NCBI GenBank assembly: GCA_963790305.1
Contig: CAWBOC010000007.1
Coordinates: 64,001-128,000 of the forward strand
From: an uncultured Gemmatimonadaceae bacterium
GTDB lineage: Bacteria > Gemmatimonadota > Gemmatimonadetes > Gemmatimonadales > Gemmatimonadaceae
Reading direction: 5' to 3'
DNA length: 64,000 nucleotides
Part shown: piece after piece, positions 10,218 to 23,524 of the stretch
Position numbering within the stretch: position 1 is the first letter of the stretch
How the letters are laid out: each line of letters starts with the position of its first letter
Position numbers and translations under genes: made by a program
Notes under the pieces: model-generated
Seen by the model: only the letters and a program-made list of their open reading frames with translations
Database searches by the model: none
What the model was told of the DNA's origin: nothing

Positions 10218-10958
10218 TCATTTCCCGTTCTTTTTCAGCCTCGCCGCGATAAACCACGTCCGATACATCGCCGTCCCCAGGCTTCCGACGCCGATCACGG
10301 CCACGGCGAGACCCAGGATCGTTCCCGGTCGCCAGCCGGCGCGCGCGCTGAGTGGTGCATCCAGTAACGCCGCGAGCGCGAGGAGCACCAGGCGCTCGGC
10401 CCGCTGCATGATCCCGCCCTTGCAGCTGACGCCTAACGCCTCGCCTTTGGCGCGAGTGTAGCTCACCAGCATCGATCCGCCCAGCGCAAGCACGGTGGAC
10501 AGCGCCATCCAGGGCGTATGCGCAAGGCGGAGGGCCAGCCCAGTGTAAGCGAAGGTCTCGGCGAACCGATCGAGCGTCGAGTCGAGGAACTCGCCGTACT
10601 CGTTGGCGAGGCCGCGGGCGCGGGCGATGCGACCGTCGAAGATGTCCGCTGCCCCGCCGAGCAGCACCAGCCAGCCGGCGACCGCGAAATCACCGGTCGC
10701 GAACGCAATGCCGGCCCCCAGCCCGAGGGCGGCCCCGAGGAAATTGAAAAAGTCCGGAGAAAGGCCGGCCCGGACGAACCCGCGCTCCATGGGCCCGATC
10801 ACCCACATGAGCCAGTCGCGCACCCAATGGCCGAGCAGGATCGTCTTGGGCCGCCGAGCAACCTCCGGGTCGATGGGTCTGCCCCGCGACACGATTGCGT
10901 ACACGGGCATCGTGAGCAGGAGCAGTCCCACGAGCGAAAGCGAAATAGTCTGAGTCAT
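10218..10958 (-). CDS. CDP-alcohol phosphatidyltransferase family protein
   Basis: Signature D-x2-DG-x2-AR-x7-G-x3-D-x3-D (DIFDGRIARARGLANEYGEFLDSTLDR); SYTRAKGE; RAER. Confidence 0.93.
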   Translation of the reverse strand: MTQTISLSLVGLLLLTMPVYAIVSRGRPIDPEVARRPKTILLGHWVRDWLMWVIGPMERGFVRAGLSPDFFNFLGAALGLGAGIAFATGDFAVAGWLVLLGGAADIFDGRIARARGLANEYGEFLDSTLDRFAETFAYTGLALRLAHTPWMALSTVLALGGSMLVSYTRAKGEALGVSCKGGIMQRAERLVLLALAALLDAPLSARAGWRPGTILGLAVAVIGVGSLGTAMYRTWFIAARLKKNGK

Positions 10959-10973
10959 GACATGCTGGAGAAA

Positions 10974-12023
10974 TCAACTCGTTGGGGGGCGATTCTCCCC
11001 CGATCCCTGACTCCTGATTCCTGGCCCCTGCACCTGGGGCCTCGTCCGCACATACTCGATCACCTTCGGCCAGAGAAAGATGAGCGGCCACCGGCGCTCT
11101 CGCTCCGTCAGCACTATGGTGCGGCCGCTGCGGCGCGCGATCTTCTGAACGATGTACTCGAGCCAGCCCTCGTAGAGCGCGACGTACTTGAGCCACCGGG
11201 CCGTCGCGCGCGCCTTGCTCCTGAGAAACCAGAGCCGGCTGGCCACCCGCCGGGAGACGTTCGCAGGCCGAGTCAAGCGGTAGACATTCCCCTCCTTGGC
11301 GGCTATGCTTGACGCGACAAGCCATTGCAGCAGGCTGTCATAGACGGGTAGGACCACATCTCGCTGTGCCGCGATTAACGCGGCGATACGCTCACCACCT
11401 TCCGGGCGAATTTCCGCGGCGAACGAAGTTTCCAGCAGTCGTCGGCAGTACGATTCCGCATTGAAAACCGAAGGGAGATAGGGGCGGCTCCAATCGAAGG
11501 TGCCAACCCGCGCGTCGAGAAGCGCATCCAGGGCTTCCTGTCGCGAACGCGCATCGCGCGTCCAAACGAGTTGGACGTGCTGGAAGAGGCGGCCGCGCGT
11601 AAAGTGGTCGGCCGCGCGCGGGGAGCAGAGGCGGCGGAGGTCGCGCACGGAGATCACGGCGCACTTGGCTCGCAGGGTCCGGTTGGGCTCTCTCAACGTC
11701 AACGAGATGACGTTGGGCGGGAGGACATGGGCGAGCGCAGTCGCCGTCCGAGCCGAGTAGCTCGGACGCACCGTCGAGCTCAGGGACCGATAGGCATCGG
11801 CGTAGCGATCCACGACGACGAAAAAGTCGTGAGCGCTATCGGGCCGGGCATCCGAGCTCTGGGCGTGGGAGCCGTAATGGATGATGGCCGCGGTTGTTGG
11901 GCCAAAGGACTGGGCAAGGAACGTCGCGAGGCGGCCGGTGTCCGCCGAGGGCTGGGTGTCGACGCCGCGAAGCAGGGCGGCGCGACGCACCGGGTCGTCA
12001 GGCGGCCGAAGCGGACGGGCCAC
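10974..12023 (-). CDS. Tam41/Mmp37-like nucleotidyltransferase (resembles the Caulobacter CpgC-type protein)
   Basis: YGS...DFFVVVD nucleotidyltransferase motif, LPPNV, LRAKCAVIS, SFAAEIRPE, YIVQKIARRSG; lipid-gene context; family assignment from memory. Confidence 0.7.
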   Translation of the reverse strand: MARPLRPPDDPVRRAALLRGVDTQPSADTGRLATFLAQSFGPTTAAIIHYGSHAQSSDARPDSAHDFFVVVDRYADAYRSLSSTVRPSYSARTATALAHVLPPNVISLTLREPNRTLRAKCAVISVRDLRRLCSPRAADHFTRGRLFQHVQLVWTRDARSRQEALDALLDARVGTFDWSRPYLPSVFNAESYCRRLLETSFAAEIRPEGGERIAALIAAQRDVVLPVYDSLLQWLVASSIAAKEGNVYRLTRPANVSRRVASRLWFLRSKARATARWLKYVALYEGWLEYIVQKIARRSGRTIVLTERERRWPLIFLWPKVIEYVRTRPQVQGPGIRSQGSGENRPPTS

Positions 12024-12812
12024 CTATTCGGTGGCGGCGCGAGCCGTGCGCATGGCGTCGAGCTCGGCGACCATGCGGTCGCGAAGGCCGTCGATGAAGT
12101 CGTCGAGATTGCTCGATGGAGGCGTGAAGGGGCCGAGGATGTGAACGGAGCAGGTCGCACCGGCAAATCCAGTTGCGGCATCGAAGGTGGTTCGGGCGTG
12201 CCAGAGGCCGTCGGCGACGATGCAGTACACCGGACGCTTCGCGCGCTCCAGTACCAGTCGCAGTCCGGTGCGCATGAACGGGGCGATCTGGCCATCACGG
12301 GTGCGGTGGCCTTCGGCGAAGATGAGCATGGAGGTGTCGCCACGTGCGGTGGAGTCGGCCGCTTCGGCAATCGCGGGGAGCTCGAGGCGCAGATTTTCGC
12401 GCTTCTGCGACACGACGGGAAAGCGGAGAAGCCGGATGAGGCTGGGCATCCCTGGAACGCGAGCGTTCGCGTAGCGATCGCGGGTAGGGATGATGGGATA
12501 GGGTCCGGGAATGAGGAGAACCCCGACCGGGATGTCCATGACGGACTGGTGGTTCATGATGACCACCACGCTCTCTCGGGGAACGGCGCCTTGCACCTTG
12601 AGGCGCATGCCGCCGAAGGTGCGAGCAAGGCCTGTGGTGGCAATGGCGTGCAGGCGAAGCCAGACGCGCCGGATGCGCACGTTGTGACGAGGAAAGAGCT
12701 TGAGGAGCGGGGGAATCAGCAGTCGGTTTCCCCCCGCGATGACGACGAACAGGTAGACGGAGAAAGCGAGCAGGAACAAGAGGCTCCGCGCGGCACGGTA
12801 GGCTCGTGTCAC
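12024..12812 (-). CDS. PlsC-like lysophospholipid acyltransferase
   Basis: NHQSVMD (HX4D) and IFAEGHRT; start GTG 12812, possibly 12887. Confidence 0.9.
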   Translation of the reverse strand: MTRAYRAARSLLFLLAFSVYLFVVIAGGNRLLIPPLLKLFPRHNVRIRRVWLRLHAIATTGLARTFGGMRLKVQGAVPRESVVVIMNHQSVMDIPVGVLLIPGPYPIIPTRDRYANARVPGMPSLIRLLRFPVVSQKRENLRLELPAIAEAADSTARGDTSMLIFAEGHRTRDGQIAPFMRTGLRLVLERAKRPVYCIVADGLWHARTTFDAATGFAGATCSVHILGPFTPPSSNLDDFIDGLRDRMVAELDAMRTARAATE

Positions 12813-12900
12813 TCGTGAGGCGGGCGCCGGCAAAGCGGGGGAGTCCGCCGGCGAGGCGCCGAGGGCGTCGGAGCTGATGGTATTCACAGGGAGATCACCA

Positions 12901-14178
12901 ATGGCAACACGAGTCGAAGCGCCGGCGAGCATGAACGTCCTGGACTACGACTATAGTAGTTTTTTCTACTCGTCGAGCGACGACCCGTTCGCGATTCTCG
13001 AGCCGTACAATGAATGGTACAACCGGGCCGTGCCGCAGGGCTACTACCTGTTCGCGCAGCCCATGTCGACACCGCCAGCGGCGCGCATTTCGCTCGAAGA
13101 GCAGCTGAATTGCCGCACGGTACCGCTGCTCAATCTCTCGTCGTACAACTACCTCGGGATGTCGTATCGCCCCGAAGTGATCGAAGCGGCCAAGCGCGCG
13201 CTCGATCGCTACGGACTCGGCGCCGCGGGATCGCCCATCCTCTCGGGCACGATGGACATCCATGTGGAGCTCGAGGAGGCCATCGCGAAGTTCAAGGGGA
13301 AGGAAGCAGCGATGGTCTTCCCCACCGGCTACAGCACCAACGTTGGCATGATCTCGGGCCTCATGCGTCCGGGCGACTGGATCATCGCCGACCAGAACTC
13401 GCACGCCTCGATCGTGGACGGCGCCATTCTCTCGAAGGCGAACGTCCGCTTCTTCCGCCACAACAACCCCGCGGATCTCGAGAAGAAGCTGCGACAGACG
13501 GCCGGGAAGAAGCTCGTGGCCGTCGAGGGCATTTACTCCATGGACGGGGACGTCTGCCCGTTGCCCGACATCGTCGAGGTCTGCAAGAAGTACGGGGCGC
13601 GCATCCTGCTCGACGAGGCGCACTCCTGCTTCGTCTACGGGCCGAACGGGCGCGGAGTGGCCGAGCACTATGGGCTCGACGAGGAGATCGACATTCACGT
13701 CGGCACCTTCTCGAAGGCGCTCGGCGGGCAGGGCGGCTATGTCGCCGGCTCCCGCAACCTCTACAACTACCTCAAGGGCTTCGCTCGCTCACGCGTCTTT
13801 TCGTGCTCGCTCTCGCCGGTGGTGGCGTCGGGCGTGCTCGAATCGTTGAGCATCGCGCAGCGAGAGCCCCAGCTGCGCGACGCGCTCTGGACCAACGTCG
13901 CGCACATCCGAAAGCGGCTGGACGAGGAAGGGGTCGATGTCGGCGATTCGACGTCACAGATCTTCCCCGTCATGATCCGCAACGACCGGCGCGTGTTCGA
14001 GGTCGGGCACAAATTGCTGCGCGCCGGGTTGTACCTGCAGCCGATCATCTATCCCGCGGTCGCCAAGCACCGCTCGCGTTTCCGCGTGTCGGTCTCGGCC
14101 TCGCATACCTTCGAGCAGCTGGACGAGGGCGTGTCCATCCTCGCCCGGGTACTCCGTGAAGAGGGGATCATTCTATGA
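12901..14178 (+). CDS. PLP-dependent alpha-oxoamine synthase, serine palmitoyltransferase-like
   Basis: SSYNYLGM, SHASIVDG, FRHN, EGIYSMDGD, DEAH, GTFSKALG (PLP Lys), R-x-R-V-S. Confidence 0.88.
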   Translation: MATRVEAPASMNVLDYDYSSFFYSSSDDPFAILEPYNEWYNRAVPQGYYLFAQPMSTPPAARISLEEQLNCRTVPLLNLSSYNYLGMSYRPEVIEAAKRALDRYGLGAAGSPILSGTMDIHVELEEAIAKFKGKEAAMVFPTGYSTNVGMISGLMRPGDWIIADQNSHASIVDGAILSKANVRFFRHNNPADLEKKLRQTAGKKLVAVEGIYSMDGDVCPLPDIVEVCKKYGARILLDEAHSCFVYGPNGRGVAEHYGLDEEIDIHVGTFSKALGGQGGYVAGSRNLYNYLKGFARSRVFSCSLSPVVASGVLESLSIAQREPQLRDALWTNVAHIRKRLDEEGVDVGDSTSQIFPVMIRNDRRVFEVGHKLLRAGLYLQPIIYPAVAKHRSRFRVSVSASHTFEQLDEGVSILARVLREEGIIL

Positions 14179-14864
14179 GCGACAATGGGTTCGTGCAGTA
14201 TCACTATCGGGACGCCATCGGCGGCTTCTTCGAGTTCCCGACGGACAACGCGCGGGCGCTGCTCCCGCAGGATCTGCAGCCGATCGAGCCGCACCACGGG
14301 TCGAGCGTTCTGTCGGTGATGGCGTTCGATTTCCACGACAGCCCGGTGGGCTCGTACGGCGAGCTCATCCTGTCGATTCTCACCGCGCCGCGCGTCGAGC
14401 CGGGGCAGCCGTGGCCGAAGTCGGCGTTCTTTCCATTCCGCCTGGCGACGACGACCCGCGAGTCACGCGAGCACGCGATCGAGCGCTGGCACCTGCCGCA
14501 TTACATGAAGGACATCGATCTGCGGTGGGATCGGGGCGATGGCCACGTGACGATTCACGCCACGGAGCGCGGGCAGCCGATCGTCGACATGACCGTCACC
14601 GAATTCGAGTGGTCGCGCGTCGAGCATCGCTATCAGGCCTTCATGCACGACGAGGAGGGCTTCTACTCGTCGACGATCGTGATGGCCGGCCAGTTCTCCG
14701 AGAACGAAGAGGAGAAGGGCGGGATCGTCATCCACACCCAGGCGATGACGGAGCTCCTCGAGGACTGGGAGCTGACCACGACGCCGTTCCGCGAGCTGTG
14801 GATGAAGAATGGGGTGCAGACGTTCCATCCACTGCAACAGCTGGCCTCTTACGCGCGACGCTAA
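14175..14864 (+). CDS. Acetoacetate-decarboxylase-fold protein
   Basis: ARALLP...SPVGSYGELILSI...AIERWHLPH pattern of the ADC superfamily; ATGA overlap with the upstream gene. Confidence 0.65.
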   Translation: MSDNGFVQYHYRDAIGGFFEFPTDNARALLPQDLQPIEPHHGSSVLSVMAFDFHDSPVGSYGELILSILTAPRVEPGQPWPKSAFFPFRLATTTRESREHAIERWHLPHYMKDIDLRWDRGDGHVTIHATERGQPIVDMTVTEFEWSRVEHRYQAFMHDEEGFYSSTIVMAGQFSENEEEKGGIVIHTQAMTELLEDWELTTTPFRELWMKNGVQTFHPLQQLASYARR

Positions 14865-14869
14865 GAAAA

Positions 14870-14992
14870 GGGGTCAGGAGTCAGGAGTCAGGATCAGGGG
14901 GTGTCGGGGAGGAGGTTGCAGGAGCTGCGCGGGCAGTCTCCTCGAACCTTCCCCCTGACACCCCCTGGTCCCTGACTCCTGACTCCTGACCC
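14870..14992. repeat. ~125-bp palindromic element with TCAGGAG heptamer arms (copy 1)
   Basis: GGGGTCAGGAGTCAGGAGTCAGGATCAGGGGGTGTC ... GACACCCCCTGGTCCCTGACTCCTGACTCCTGACCC; homologous end to end with the reverse complement of 29139-29264. Confidence 0.92.
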
Positions 14993-15001
14993 TGGTCATT
15001 C

Positions 15002-15898
15002 ATGCCCAATAAGGTCTGCGTCATCGTCAATCCGGCCTCCGGCCGGGGCTCTGGCGCGCGCGCGCTTCCGGCGATCCGCGCGGCCTTCTCGGCCGTCGGC
15101 GTGTCCGAGGTCCGCCTCACGAGCGCGAAAGGTGGCGAGGGCGCGGACGCGCGTAAGGCGCTCGACGACGGCTTCGATACCATCGTCGCCTGTGGAGGCG
15201 ACGGCACCTGGGGGAACGTCGCCAACGCGGTGATCGCTGCTGGCGCGGGTCGCCAGGCACGGCTCGCCCTCGTCGCCACCGGCACCGGCAACGACTTCGC
15301 GAAGACGGTCGGTGCGCCGGCGCGAGATTTCCCGGCCACGGCGCGTCTGGCGGTGAATGGCTCCGACATGATGGTCGACGTCGGCCGCATCGAGGGCCGT
15401 CATTTCCTGAACGTCTCCGGGTTCGGCTTCGACATCGCCGTCCTCGAGGACATCGAGCGGATCTCCTGGCTGAAGGGAGACATGCTCTATCTCTATTCCG
15501 CAATGCGGCAGCTCTTCAGCTACGGCGGTGTGGAGGTCGGCATCGCGACGCCTCGAAAGCGTCGGGATCCGCAACGGCATCTCATGTTGATCGTGGCGAA
15601 CGCGCGGAACTTCGGGGGATCGTTCAAGATCGCGCCGGGGGCGTCGGTCACGGACGGAAAGCTCGACGCAATCTCCATTCACGACGCGGCACCGCTCGCG
15701 CGCATGCGCCTCTTCGCGGCGGCGACGAAGGGAACACACGTGATGGCGCCCGAGGTGCTGGTCGAGCAGTCTCCGAGCTTCACGCTGGAGTTCCCGGTGC
15801 CACCGGCATTCGAGACCGACGGTGAATACCAGCGTGCTTCCGGCACGCTGATACAGATTGATTGTGTACCGCAAGCACTTCGCGTCGTGATACCTTGA
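15002..15898 (+). CDS. Diacylglycerol/sphingosine kinase family lipid kinase (YegS/BmrU; CpgB-like by context)
   Basis: IVNPASG, GGDGT, GTGNDFA, DVG, GFGFD, DGE. Confidence 0.93.
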   Translation: MPNKVCVIVNPASGRGSGARALPAIRAAFSAVGVSEVRLTSAKGGEGADARKALDDGFDTIVACGGDGTWGNVANAVIAAGAGRQARLALVATGTGNDFAKTVGAPARDFPATARLAVNGSDMMVDVGRIEGRHFLNVSGFGFDIAVLEDIERISWLKGDMLYLYSAMRQLFSYGGVEVGIATPRKRRDPQRHLMLIVANARNFGGSFKIAPGASVTDGKLDAISIHDAAPLARMRLFAAATKGTHVMAPEVLVEQSPSFTLEFPVPPAFETDGEYQRASGTLIQIDCVPQALRVVIP

Positions 15899-15987
15899 GA
15901 ACGAATGCGGAATGCGGAATGCGGATAGAACATCAACGGCCCAGGCTGTTCATGGTTAATCCGCATTCCGTATTCCGCATTCGTTCT
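15898..15987. repeat. Inverted repeat built of GAATGCG heptamers
   Basis: AGAACGAATGCGGAATGCGGAATGCGGAT ... ATCCGCATTCCGTATTCCGCATTCGTTCT. Confidence 0.9.
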
Positions 15988-15989
15988 TC

Positions 15990-17207
15990 ATGAAAGCAAT
16001 CTCCTTTGCGGCGCCGATCCCGACCTATCTCGCGACGTTGCTGGCCGGGAAGGTCAACGATGCCCTCTACACCGGGCCGCACGCGTGCACACGACTCGGT
16101 GACGTCGAGACCCCCGCGCTGCCAACGGATCGATGGGTACGCGTGCGCACCCGGATGGGTGGGATCTGTGGGAGCGACCTCAACGTCATCACGCTCAAGG
16201 CCTCGCCGTCGACGTCGCCATTCTCCTCATTTCCGTTCGTGATCGGTCATGAGAACGTCGGCGAGATCGTCGAAGTCGGGCGCGGCGTTCGTGATGCTCG
16301 CGTCGGAGAGCGGGTCGTCGCCAATCCCCTGCTCTGCTGCGAGCCCCGCGGGCTCGAGCCCGCCTGCGACGCATGCGCGGCTGGCCATCACTCGAGGTGC
16401 GCGCGTTTCACCGACGGCGCTCTTGCGCCGGGGATGCTGATCGGCACGACGCGCGGACTTGGCGGCAGCTGGGGGGAAATGTTCGTCGCGCACGAGACGC
16501 AGCTCGTTCGCGTCGGCGACGCAGTGACCGACGAGGAAGCCGTTCTCGTCGAGCCCTTTGCCTGCTCCGTGCATGCCGTTCGCTCGGCGATGCCTGTCTC
16601 GGGCGAGCGCGTGCTGGTGATCGGTGCGGGCTCGATCGGGCTGCTCACCGTCGCGGCATTGAAGGCCCTCGCGCCGGCGTGTCATGTGACGGTACTGGCC
16701 AGGCACGCCTTTCAAGCCGAGCACGCGACGCGCCTCGGCGCGAACGGTGTCGTCTTCGCGCGCGGCGAATACCTGGGCGCACTCGCCGAGGCGGGTCAGA
16801 CGCGCCTGTTGAAGCCGATCATTGGGAAGCCCGTCGGCGTGGGCGGCTTTCACAAAACGTTCATCTGCATTGGCGGGGCACGAGCGACGGACGACGCGAT
16901 GCGCGTCACGCGCGCTGGAGGGACCCTCGTGCTGTTAGGCAACTCCGCGAAGATGGACGGCATTGACTGGACGCCCCTCTGGCTCAAGGAGCTGACCGTG
17001 CGCGGCTCGTTGTGCTACGGGGAGCACCGGCACGGGTCGCCCACCCGGGATGCGTTTCGCGAAGCCGCCGACCTCATCGCCGCGCGTCGCGTAGCGCTCG
17101 CGCCTCTCCTCACGCATGTGTATTCGCTCGCGGACTATCGGAACGCGCTTTCGACGGCGATGGACAAGAAGGGGTCGGGAAGCATCAAGGTGGCGTTCAG
17201 GTTCTAG
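15990..17207 (+). CDS. Zinc-binding medium-chain dehydrogenase/reductase
   Basis: GICGSD, GHENVG, structural-Zn cysteines (CC...CDAC...C), GAGSIG. Confidence 0.92.
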   Translation: MKAISFAAPIPTYLATLLAGKVNDALYTGPHACTRLGDVETPALPTDRWVRVRTRMGGICGSDLNVITLKASPSTSPFSSFPFVIGHENVGEIVEVGRGVRDARVGERVVANPLLCCEPRGLEPACDACAAGHHSRCARFTDGALAPGMLIGTTRGLGGSWGEMFVAHETQLVRVGDAVTDEEAVLVEPFACSVHAVRSAMPVSGERVLVIGAGSIGLLTVAALKALAPACHVTVLARHAFQAEHATRLGANGVVFARGEYLGALAEAGQTRLLKPIIGKPVGVGGFHKTFICIGGARATDDAMRVTRAGGTLVLLGNSAKMDGIDWTPLWLKELTVRGSLCYGEHRHGSPTRDAFREAADLIAARRVALAPLLTHVYSLADYRNALSTAMDKKGSGSIKVAFRF

Positions 17208-19925: not shown

Positions 19926-20093
19926 CCTATTAGGGGGCTCTGGAGGCCATGAACTGGGGGTGGCGTCCACCGGGGAGACATCTGTTGTCCCCCACCGAAG
20001 AATCGCAGAACCCCCCTGTGACCGGGGCCACAAACGGGTTGCCCGGGAGGCCTGCGCAGGGCCATCTTGCCGCCTGCACTCTCAAGGGGGCAC

Positions 20094-20699
20094 ATGAGTT
20101 TCCAGGACTTCGGCATTCGGCGCGGGATTGCGGTCGCGCTTCTTTCGACCGCAAGCGCCTCTGTCGCGCTCGCGCAGACGCCCGCCACACCCGTGGCCGC
20201 CGTGCCGACCGTTGGGTCGATCGCGCCCGATTTCACGCTCCCTGGCGCGACGCGCTACGGACTGCTCGCGTCGCCGGTGAAGCTCAGCGATTTCCGTGGC
20301 AAGACGGTCGTGATCGCTTTTTTTTACCAGGCGCGAACGAAGGGCTGAACTGTCCAAATGGAAGCGTACCGTGATCAGTACGCCACGCTCTTCAACGCCG
20401 GAAACGACGTAGTCGTCATCGGCATTAGCGCCGATGCCGATACCACGCTCGCCGCGTGGGCACGCGAATCGGACTTTCCAATGGTGTTCGCGAGCGACGT
20501 CGGCAACGAGGCCGGACGTCGCTATGGCTCGTTCGACGCTGCCCGCAAGCTCGACACGCGCAACCTGTTCGTGGTATCGCCCGAGGGACGGATCGCCCAC
20601 GTCATGCTGTCGTTCAAAGTGTTGTCACCTGACGCCTACACGGAGCTCGGGACTGCGGTTGACAAAAGCGCTGGCGTTGACGACTCCGCGCACAAGTAG
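20094..20699 (+). CDS. Exported BCP/AhpC-TSA peroxiredoxin with in-frame UGA (probable selenocysteine)
   Basis: ORFs 20067-20348 and 20358-20699 are in the same frame and join as ...APDFTL..LSDFRGKTVVIAFFYQARTKG-UGA-TVQMEAYRDQY..VIGISAD. The UGA aligns with the peroxidatic Cys of BCP (TPGCT). N-terminal signal peptide (ALA-Q). Confidence 0.85.
20361..20393 (+). promoter_or_regulatory. Candidate bacterial SECIS hairpin
   Basis: Stem GCGTAC (20364-69)/GTACGC (20378-83) with loop CGTGATCA starting 22 nt after the UGA; possible lower pairing of GAA with TTC (20391-93). Confidence 0.6.
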
Positions 20700-20732: not shown

Positions 20733-21648
20733 GTGACGGCTCCGTTCACCCTCGGCGTCATCCAGCAGCGGGTGGCCGTCGACGCCGAGGCGACCGTCGC
20801 GGAGGCGATCGAGGACATCCGCGAGGCGGCGCGGCGCGGCGCGCAGGTGATTCTGCCTCCAGGAGCTCTTCAACGCACCGTACTTCTGCAAAGTGACGGA
20901 CGCGGAGCGCTTCGATCTCGCCGAGCCGATTCCCGGGCCCGACGGTGGAGCGGATGCAGGCGCTGGCGCGCGAGCTCGCCCTCGTGATCGTCGTCCCGAT
21001 CTTCGAGAAGCGAGCGGCCGGCGTCTACCACAACTCGGCCGCCGTCATCGACGCCGACGGCTCGCTCATCGGCGTGTATCGCAAGATGCACATCCCCGAC
21101 GATCCGCTCTACCACGAGAAGTACTACTTCACACCGGGAGAGATCTACCAGCACGGCGAAACCGCGACCGTGCAGACGGGCTTTCGCGTCTTCGACGACG
21201 CGTTATGCGACGCATCGGCGTGCTGATCTGCTGGGACCAGTGGTACCCGGAGGCCGCGCGCATCACCGCGCTCATGGGCGCGCAGGTCCTCCTCTATCCG
21301 ACGGCGATCGGGTGGCATCCGAAGGAGAAGGACGAGTGGGGGACGGCGCAGGCCGACGCGTGGCGCACGATTCAGCGCGCGCACGCGATCGCGAACGGCG
21401 TGTACGTCGCCGCGGCCAACCGCGTGGGGCACGAGCCGGAGCCGGGCACCGACGGGATCGAGTTCTTCGGCCACTCGTTCGTCGCCGACCCGTTCGGCCG
21501 CATGATCGCGGAGGCAGGCACCGAGCCGGCCATCCTGATCGCGGAGTGCGACCCGAAGCTGATCGAGTACACGCGACGGAACTGGCCTTTTCTGCGAGAC
21601 CGCCGGATCGACGCGTACGGTCCGATCCTGCAGCGGTACATCGGGTGA
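20733..21648 (+). CDS. aguB: N-carbamoylputrescine amidase (carbon-nitrogen hydrolase); split by about 4 single-base insertions
   Basis: Across frames: QELFNAPYFC, YRKMHIPDDPLYHEKYYFTPG, ICWDQWYPE, PTAIGW, WPFLRDRR; insertions near 20852, 20940 and 21197-21212. Confidence 0.85.
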
Positions 21649-21658
21649 AAGATCAACG

Positions 21659-21759
21659 TCCGAAGACGTCAGGTGTCAGCGGTCAGGCGACGTCATCGCG
21701 CAGATGCCGTTGCCGTTTCTGATACCTGACACCTGACGTCTGACCCTGACGTCTTCGGA
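21659..21759. repeat. Palindromic element with TCAG-based heptamer units
   Basis: Perfect 15-bp terminal inverted repeat TCCGAAGACGTCAGG / CCTGACGTCTTCGGA; inner CTGAC units. Confidence 0.85.
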
Positions 21760-21761
21760 AG

Positions 21762-22865
21762 TTGCCCCTGCCATTGTCTACCAGATCTCAGAGAACGTGG
21801 CCCGCCGAGTGGGAACCCCACGCCGCGACGTGGCTCGGTTGGCCCCACCACGCGCCCGATTGGCCCGGCAAGTTCGAGCCGATCCGCTGGGTCTACGCCG
21901 AGATCGTGCGCGCACTTCACGGCTACGAGCCCGTCGAGATTCTCTGCCACTCGAGGAGATTCAGGAGCAGGCGCGGCGCCGCGCTGCGCTCCCACGGCGT
22001 TAGGCTCGACCGGTGCCGGCTGCATGTCGTTCCCAGCGATCGGGTTTGGCTTCGCGACTCGGGGCCGACCATGGTCTGGCGCGAGGACGGGAGCGTCGAA
22101 GCCGTGTGCTGGCGCTTCAACGCCTGGGCCAAGTACGACAACTACCGTGCGGACGCGCTGGTCGCGCCGGCGGTGGCGCGCCTCGCGCGAATTCCCGCCG
22201 CCGAAGCCGTTCGTCCCGACGACGGAAGCCGTCTCGTGCTCGAAGGCGGAGCGCATCGACACGAACGGCGCGGGCGTGCTGCTCGACGACGGAGGAGTGT
22301 CTCCTCTCGACGGTTCAGGAGCGTAACCCCGGACTCGATCGCGCTGGATACGAGCGCGCCTTCCGCGACTACCTGGGCATCCGACACGCACGATCTGGCT
22401 CGGCGAAGGGTGCGTCGGTGACGACACGCACGGGCACGTGGACGACATCGCGCGCTTCGTCGCGCCGAACACCGTCGTCCTCGCCTTCGAGGCCGATCCC
22501 GCCGACGCGAACCACGAGCGCTCCGTCGACAACCGCCGGCGACTCGAGCACGCCGCGCGACAGGTCGAGGGCGGCCTGCAGATCGTCGATCTTCCGTATC
22601 CCGCGTGCCGTCATCATGGACGGCGAGCGACTGCCGGCGAGCTACGCCAACTTCTACATCGCGAACGGCGTCGTGCTCGTCCCGACGTTCAACGACGTGA
22701 ACGATCGCATCGCGCTCGGCATTCTCGCCGAGCTGCTTTCCCGATCGCGACGTGATCGGGATCCACGCCGTGGATCTCGTATGGGGACTCGGCACCCTGC
22801 ACTGCCTGACCCAGCAGCAGCCGGCCGCTCAGGGCCCCTTTCAGCGAATCCCCGGCACCCCCTGA
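21762..22865 (+). CDS. aguA: Agmatine/peptidyl-arginine deiminase; split by several single-base insertions
   Basis: [61 protein letters not shown]. Confidence 0.88.
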
Positions 22866-23524
22866 TCCCTGACTCCCGACTCCTGACCCCTTCGCAGTAA
22901 CTCCATCACTTCCTCGTCCGTCGTCTGCGCGAAGTCATGGTACCACGCCCCAACGCCGAAGAAGCGGTCGGGGATCGCGACGCAGACGACGTCGTCCGCC
23001 TGACGAGCGACCGCCTGCGCGCCCTCGGGCGAGCACACCGGGGCCGCCAGGACGAGGCGGCGCGGGCGCTGAAGACGCAGCGCCGTCAGTGAGGCCAGCG
23101 CAGTCACTCCCGTGGCCAGACCGTCATCCACCAGCACTACCGATCGTCCCTCGATGCGCGGGGGAGGACGATCTCCGCGAAAGCAGCGGAGCCGTCGCTC
23201 GAGCTCAGCCAGCTCCTTCCGCGTGACCTCCTCGATGTACGAGTCGCTCACGCCGAGCATCCGGATCGCCTCGGCATCGAGGAACCGGGTTCCGCCAGGC
23301 GCAACCGCACCGATCCCCAGCTCCTCATGTCCGGGCGCACCGAGCTTCCGCGCGATGAAGAGGTCGAGTGGTGCGTCGATGGATCGCGCGACCTCGTAGC
23401 CTACCGGAACGCCGCCGCGCGGGATCGCGAGCACAAGCGGATCTTCGTCCCGGATTTGGGGCAGCCGTCGCACCAGCTCCGAGCCCAGGCGCCTCCCCGC
23501 CTCCACACGATTCGGAAACAGCAT
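22841..23524 (-). CDS. Phosphoribosyltransferase-family protein
   Basis: [51 protein letters not shown]. Confidence 0.92.

Follow-up and report, generated by a model that had tools for sequence, protein, structure and literature searches.

The gene at 20094–20699 of the window, a stretch of 64,000 nucleotides from an uncultured Gemmatimonadaceae bacterium, contained an internal UGA that is very likely decoded as selenocysteine. Its product was best read, with a probability of about 0.75, as an exported peroxiredoxin with a single Sec residue, for which CcdA, through a periplasmic TlpA-like thioredoxin, would supply the reducing power. The gene formed a single frame of 201 codons from ATG 20094 to TAG 20699, joined by one in-frame TGA as the earlier note had claimed. 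The TGA (20346–20348) was codon 85 and occupied the peroxidatic position in the context FFYQARTKG-U-TVQMEAYRD, and the translation contained no Cys, again in line with that note. The ORF finder cut the gene into two pieces (20067–20348 and 20358–20699). Databases held C-terminal tails of 113–114 aa named 'peroxiredoxin' or 'redoxin domain-containing protein', and this gene was represented by its own 113-aa tail alone, so that the splitting by standard pipelines that had been foreseen did occur. The features of the gene were as follows.

20094–20699, plus strand: peroxiredoxin gene (AhpC/TSA, BCP/PrxQ-like) of 201 aa with UGA readthrough, from PF00578, the structure model, and orthologs
20094–20174, plus strand: predicted signal peptide, residues 1–27 (RR, hydrophobic core, ALA before Q), from the sequence, a heuristic, and the alignment
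20325–20327, plus strand: Tyr78 at the Pro position of P-x3-T-x2-C, from ortholog alignments
20337–20339, plus strand: Thr82, the motif Thr of T-x2-U, T or S in 159/160 TGA loci
20346–20348, plus strand: in-frame TGA, presumed to encode selenocysteine at residue 85, which opens helix 85–94 in the model, from the sequence, orthologs, and reads
20364–20383, plus strand: SECIS-like hairpin with a 6-bp stem, an 8-nt loop, and GU at +23/+24, from conservation and the consensus constraints
20559–20561, plus strand: Arg156, the catalytic Arg that peroxiredoxins conserve, invariant in 60/60 rows of alignment A1

The TGA is genuine and no assembly error. Four of the 22 listed runs were compared, and contigs from two runs of two studies spanned the TGA with no differences (X1, 20200–20492, possibly the source sample; X4, 20201–20381); where TGC or TGT might have been seen in the raw data, both showed TGA. 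Same-genus orthologs aligned across residues 1/2–201. A promoter scan at the gene gave no promoter and one terminator-like site within the gene, which was at chance level. No RNA data set was listed as containing the gene.

The protein matched PF00578 over residues 40–169 (E 1.7e-25; 89.8 bits against a cut-off of 26). In the AlphaFold model (pLDDT 89), calculated from the 60-row alignment A1 with Cys substituted for Sec, residue 85 opened a helix. The listed matches of the PDB sequence and fold searches were peroxiredoxins only, with E values of 2.6e-13 to 3e-7 for the best sequence matches, TM-scores of 0.65–0.67 by query for the fold matches, and identities of 19–29%. The best matches were BCP/PrxQ and AhpE-type structures (2ywn, 3hjp Bcp4, and 2cx3; Rv2238c, 1xvw), with which the Thr and Arg residues aligned. 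Arg156 aligned with the corresponding Arg in 2ywn and 6j13. These two aligned chains differed from the present protein in having Pro and Cys at the motif. To our knowledge, none of the solved structures 2ywn, 3hjp, 2cx3, and 1xvw is of an exported protein.

Both Thr/Ser at −3 (Thr82) and the conserved Arg (Arg156) of peroxiredoxins were present, and the Pro at −7 of P-x3-T-x2-C/U was missing, so the protein was classed as a noncanonical variant with peroxiredoxin-like function. The earlier note had named Gln as the substitute for this Pro; the residue is Tyr78, and Gln79 is the next position. The protein fell far under every peroxiredoxin cut-off of NCBIfam, among them those of the equivalogs PrxU (NF040737, 58.1 bits vs 270), BCP (NF006960, 58.4 bits vs 140), and PrxQ (NF053650, 38 bits vs 260); the BCP/PrxQ cut-offs of NCBIfam were missed by the Cys orthologs too. 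A downstream resolving Cys was absent in 158/160 TGA loci and in 24/24 Cys loci. Since neither form has one, the single-residue chemistry is older than Sec or independent of it.

The same protein could be an exported selenoprotein that is not mainly a peroxidase and instead reduces oxidized envelope proteins, relays a redox signal, or handles sulfur or selenium species, which we consider rather unlikely. Such a role would suit the low scores and identities given above, the missing resolving Cys, and a remodelled loop in which Tyr or Phe stands for Pro and Arg81 is invariant, the defining Pro being missing in 145/160 TGA forms. It is opposed by the retention of Thr, the catalytic position, and Arg156, by Cys orthologs at 50–60% identity with the complete P-x3-T/S-x2-C motif, and by the listed PDB sequence and fold matches, every one of which was a peroxiredoxin. 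The peroxiredoxin reading was preferred.

The search for Sec machinery proposed in the earlier note found all four components in this genome: selA (C9:116360–117700), selB (C6:48890–50730), selD (C6:122260–123220), and, directly behind selD, a tRNA-SeC with a UCA anticodon (73 bits). The selD gene carried an in-frame TGA of its own, and selA, selB, and selD each had one frameshift. If all three splits were real, the machinery would be lost, the UGA would now be a stop, and the peroxiredoxin gene would be a relic in this one organism, a very improbable outcome. Of 117 alignments to open frames of the same-genus genome G008, 47 were frameshifted, with 87 events over 168 kb or 0.52 per kb. The frames came from 20 stretches, with the three sel genes and a few overlapping frames among them, and the G008 frames are assumed to be right. 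At this rate, simple arithmetic gives a chance of ~14% for three hits. Because the background rate is this high, the sel frameshifts were judged to be assembly errors, a judgement drawn from that rate rather than from reads over the sel genes. An extra base at 20935, which shifts the neighboring amidase gene, was missing from short contigs of two runs. The score of the tRNA-Sec, the presence of selA without internal stops in 7/8 same-genus genomes, and the Cys codons that replace TGA in selA-negative relatives also speak against a relic. Since this assembly has ~0.5 frameshifts in each kb when compared with a genome of its genus, findings of broken genes in it call for caution. N-carbamoylputrescine amidase-like and agmatine deiminase-like genes at 20733–22900 of the window were each split by several indels. 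A heme-copper oxidase was also encoded in this genome.

The catalytic codon was then read in 184 distinct orthologous loci of Gemmatimonadota, a set freed of duplicates that omits 13 distant Cys-only paralogs and two short paralogs without a visible signal peptide. It was TGA in 160, TGC in 22, and TGT in two, with no other codon and no TAA or TAG; the pairing of UGA with Cys at this column, suggested as a check, was thus found (160 vs 24 loci). Among the first 40 relatives, selA was present in 34, and the TGA form occurred in 31, all selA-positive and 29 with tRNA-Sec; the ortholog was not found in four. Three genomes that were 98–100% complete (G013, G014, and G018) carried Cys codons at this column, and no selA or tRNA-Sec was found in them. 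More distant Cys copies only were present in G009, without selA and tRNA-Sec, and in G031, with both.

In a phylum-wide draw, 121/151 genomes, this one included, gave a match at E 1e-28 or better, and the three most distant family codes gave none at that level. The 109 further matching genomes comprised 83 with TGA and selA, 18 with neither, eight with selA and no TGA (seven of them with just a weak, distant match), and none with TGA and no selA, so that 91/109 had selA; for 50 of the 83, the TGA was verified to stand at the catalytic column, and for the remainder it was scored as lying inside the match. When the counts were pooled, selA was found in 114/114 relatives with the TGA form, and the TGA form in 0/24 genomes lacking selA, where kin are not independent, absence means not found in these assemblies, and the unpublished genome G015 is one row on which no claim depends alone. 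The distribution suggests a Sec trait that looks common and repeatedly lost in Gemmatimonadota. Whole genera without selA were also seen (g32, g33, and g47).

The SECIS-like hairpin consisted of a stem strand at 20364–20369, the loop CGTGATCA at 20370–20377, and a second strand at 20378–20383. As described in the earlier note, the loop began at +22 past the TGA (21-nt spacer) and had G at its second position, followed by U. In a comparison by hand, the loop of 8 nt, stem of 6 bp, spacer of 21 nt, and energy of −8.0 kcal/mol agreed in all respects with the SECIS consensus given in PMC13188914 (loop 3–9 nt, stem 4–16 bp, G in the first two loop positions, spacing 16–37 nt, and −7.5 kcal/mol or lower). 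Folding energy was rejected as a proof of the hairpin, with z values of −0.24, −0.72, −1.73, and −2.24 that were not significant in three of four windows. This mRNA also had a competing fold, and the pairing probability of the stem was 0.2–0.4 in windows of 52–90 nt and 0.95 in a 40-nt window.

Because the energy alone did not exceed chance, the case for the hairpin was built on conservation, which was far beyond chance. The 6-bp stem was intact in 160/160 TGA loci vs 1/24 Cys loci. The identical 20-mer occurred in 150/160 and 0/24, respectively; from codon usage in these genes, 0.8% would be expected. Over 108 loci, synonymous entropy was 0–0.23 bits at codons +6 to +11 and 0.6–2.1 bits at conserved codons that lie beyond the +3 to +15 range. 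The covariation that had been proposed as a further check was found in one flanking pair, the stem itself being frozen at synonymous sites. This pair, +15/+36, lies directly below the stem and had the highest mutual information (0.75); it was G-C in 95 loci, C-G in 27, U-A in six, A-U in two, and unpaired in 30 (mostly A-A, one clade), and on the tree its pair type must have changed 10 times or more. The present gene has an A-C mismatch there. A longer conserved lower stem was rejected, as no covariation supported it at +11 to +14. In the Cys gene of G013, the peptide AYRDQY was retained and three synonymous sites had drifted, as expected if a SECIS had decayed.

A protein search yielded 120 listed hits, namely 100 Cys proteins, 14 fragments, and six rows with Trp or Leu at the catalytic column. 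These six are full-length database proteins (P0003, P0032, P0048, P0055, P0070, and P0024), five with Trp and one with Leu, and are likely TGA forms mistranslated by gene callers. Together with the orthologs in which Cys works at this position, they are what could be cited for decoding of the UGA as Cys or Trp, through a different tRNA or leaky read-through, a reading with hardly any probability left. The TGA form occurred solely with selA (114/114 relatives), the hairpin fits the consensus of a SelB site and decays in Cys forms, and the UCA tRNA that was found is of the Sec type; the Trp rows would be explained most simply as gene-caller translations under another code. Least credible of all is a true stop, in a family-wide pseudogene or in a split gene whose second half restarts at ATG 20358, since, for all that a Met codon stands at +4 in 108/108 TGA loci and a 113-aa piece is in databases, the Cys orthologs carry the same Met (or Leu), a stop would cost the protein its catalytic residue and interrupt the fold, and both halves are conserved in frame across several families and orders without TAA or TAG in the 184 loci.

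The motif proline was also compared with the catalytic residue. Pro was at −7 in 15/160 TGA loci vs 24/24 Cys loci, and in 98/100 Cys proteins of the independent protein-search set; Phe (73) and Tyr (63) were the main residues in TGA loci. A tree of 121 rows and 129 columns, made by quick searches after the motif and the hairpin-coded residues had been removed, required 12 changes between Sec and Cys and 12 between Pro and non-Pro, counts that do not fix direction. A single Sec clade was rejected (AU p 0.00018), as was a single non-Pro clade (AU p 0.009). In one starred case, a Sec/Tyr gene was the sister of two Cys/Pro genes lacking selA, and all three belonged to a single genus. Sign tests on the starred branches had just three independent pairs for Pro/Cys, none contrary and not significant, and three pairs for selA/Cys, too few for significance. 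G073, G109, and G163 hold both forms, so hidden old paralogy could mimic switching. A Cys/Pro copy and a TGA/Pro copy lie in tandem in the selA-positive genome G109 (L158, G109:C19:41100–44200), and the Sec and Cys forms of G073 and G163 are unlinked.

Two other Sec-peroxiredoxins, one on C13 of this genome and one in G012, kept the Pro, so its loss is specific to the exported Sec family. Sec resists irreversible over-oxidation, and we infer that the loss of the shielding Pro is tied to this property. The motif Pro has been described as keeping solvent from the catalytic Cys or shielding it hydrophobically (PMC3337327; bioRxiv 10.64898/2025.12.11.693838). Given the association above, the Pro that shields the thiol of Cys enzymes might be dispensable or disfavored with a selenium nucleophile, a cause to which we give even odds.

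The N-terminus had the layout of the signal peptide claimed in the earlier note, with RR, a hydrophobic stretch, and ALA-Q28. A crude heuristic (hydrophobic stretch, basic start, and small residues at −3/−1) was passed by 128/157 TGA orthologs, and the failures that were inspected still had hydrophobic N-termini. An Ala/Gly-Gln cleavage-like site was present in 141/157, and in alignment A1, Q28 was invariant and A27 nearly invariant. Tat export and a lipoprotein anchor were both rejected, with one Tat-like motif and three lipobox-like matches, respectively, in 157 loci.

The commonest neighbors of the gene were ccdA-like and tlpA-like genes. Of 173 loci whose flank reached 800 nt or more, 72 had them directly downstream, with six family codes represented, and the flanks of the other 101 lacked the pair. 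The pair is convergent (tail-to-tail) to the peroxiredoxin gene, so the genes are not co-transcribed; in this genome, the pair sits on C5, away from the peroxiredoxin gene. The neighboring TlpA has CxxC and a signal-like N-terminus, and the best NCBIfam hit of the TlpA-like protein was ResA, below the cut-off. By analogy with the ScsB-TlpA-PprX relay of Caulobacter, TlpA would be the likeliest reductant; the neighborhood may instead reflect cytochrome c maturation or plain synteny. The adjacency was not accepted as Sec-specific (0/22 Cys loci), as counts within families were small (TGA vs Cys, 2/25 vs 0/12 in f1 and 10/28 vs 0/9 in f2). A functional link to the aguB/aguA-like polyamine genes or a glycine-zipper gene (36, 28, and 29 of 184 loci) was also rejected, and these were taken as local synteny. 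Outside the window, C7:164300–167300 held a 768-codon DsbD/ScsB-like frame beside an exported CxxxC redoxin, an arrangement that we take to resemble ScsB-PrxL; the frame is a possible second envelope electron source.

The proposed mechanism begins with SelB and Sec-tRNA binding the hairpin 21 nt past the UGA, which would very likely insert Sec85. The signal peptide would very probably direct the protein to the general secretion pathway, with cleavage after Ala27. From the chemistry of the family, the selenolate, held by Thr82 and Arg156, probably attacks ROOH to form a selenenic acid. As the protein has no resolving residue, an outside dithiol must attack the selenenic acid. From the gene neighborhood, we tentatively take as the best candidate for this dithiol the soluble TlpA-like protein with CxxC whose gene accompanies ccdA. 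The exported 1-Sec peroxiredoxin inferred in the earlier note was judged to be supported, and every proposed check that was run favored it.

At least six other redox genes with an in-frame TGA were present in this genome, selD among them. The following five had hairpins unlike that of the peroxiredoxin in sequence and spacing.

C13:83288: second peroxiredoxin (P-x3-T-x2-U, Pro kept)
C6:402908: UxxC Prx-like protein with an in-frame TGA
C10:280487 and C10:438410: two CxxU genes with an in-frame TGA, presumably of the AhpD-like family
C5, about 293350: molybdopterin oxidoreductase with an in-frame TGA, which we take to be formate dehydrogenase-like

A motif scan of the genome for selenoproteins gave 113 candidates, mostly spurious, and missed the peroxiredoxin itself, so no selenoproteome count was taken from it. 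Elsewhere in the window, a divergent lipid-type cluster at 10218–17207 encoded a CDP-alcohol phosphatidyltransferase, an acyltransferase, a class I/II PLP enzyme, an ADC-like protein, a DAG-kinase/YegS protein, a Zn dehydrogenase, and a 349-aa ORF without a Pfam hit. The PLP enzyme presumably resembles serine palmitoyltransferase/AONS, and the cluster is possibly a sphingolipid-like or other amino-lipid pathway.

Sec-containing peroxiredoxins (Prx, TxxU; COG1225) have been catalogued since 2005, when the Sargasso Sea survey counted 43 genes (PMC1088965), and are also covered in PMC1794560 and in the 2026 review PMC13188914, which cites the verified prototype from Eubacterium acidaminophilum (NCBIfam NF040737, peroxi_PrxU). 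The present protein shares with them the AhpC/TSA domain, the T-x2-U site, and a UGA with a downstream bacterial SECIS. It differs in its predicted signal peptide, in having no Cys, in the replaced Pro of what that review terms the 'highly conserved PxxxTxxU motif', and in its score against NF040737 (58 bits vs the cut-off of 270). The available text of the 2006 survey reports no Sec-to-Cys event for Prx (PMC1794560), whereas the present family required at least 12 Sec/Cys changes of unfixed direction.

Among exported enzymes, PprX (CC1673) of Caulobacter crescentus is a periplasmic BCP/PrxQ Cys peroxiredoxin that receives electrons from ScsB through TlpA (PMC3322552). The present protein resembles it as a predicted exported BCP-like peroxiredoxin whose candidate donors are a TlpA-like thioredoxin and a membrane protein of the DsbD family. 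By its description in PMC3322552, PprX is set apart by its Cys, the kept PXXXTXXC, and a resolving Cys position; the present protein has a Sec catalytic residue, no second Cys, and a neighbor of CcdA size instead of ScsB. No description of the family was found in the literature on Gemmatimonadota selenoproteins, including the available text of PMC8318568, where survey supplements may list members, or in that on exported bacterial Sec-peroxiredoxins, a search largely confined to sources other than subscription journals. Gemmatimonadota, signal peptides, and the periplasm are unmentioned in the main text of PMC13188914. The class of Sec-peroxiredoxins and exported BCP-type enzymes are thus known, and nothing here is a new kind of system; the combination of predicted export with Sec, the Pro-less, single-residue site, and the frequent ccdA-tlpA neighbors are distinctive.

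For annotation, the finding means that a gene conserved through much of Gemmatimonadota is represented in databases by a fragment that lacks the catalytic residue. Selenoproteins are rarely retained by aerobic bacteria (PMC13188914), the marine Sec-Prx genes being an earlier exception, and this rarity contrasts with the presence of selA in 34/40 and 91/109 genomes and with the heme-copper oxidase encoded here. The matched Sec/Tyr and Cys/Pro orthologs, at 50–60% identity, make the question of selenium versus sulfur testable. A more speculative account, which we hold to be possible and somewhat doubtful, is that selenium freed envelope peroxidases from an 'invariant' Pro, that each loss of the Sec machinery turned UGA to Cys and forced the Pro back, repeatedly and independently, and that the CcdA-TlpA relay attacks the selenenic acid directly. 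If this were true, the phylum-wide family would amount to a replicated natural experiment on the benefit of selenium to enzymes in an oxidizing compartment.
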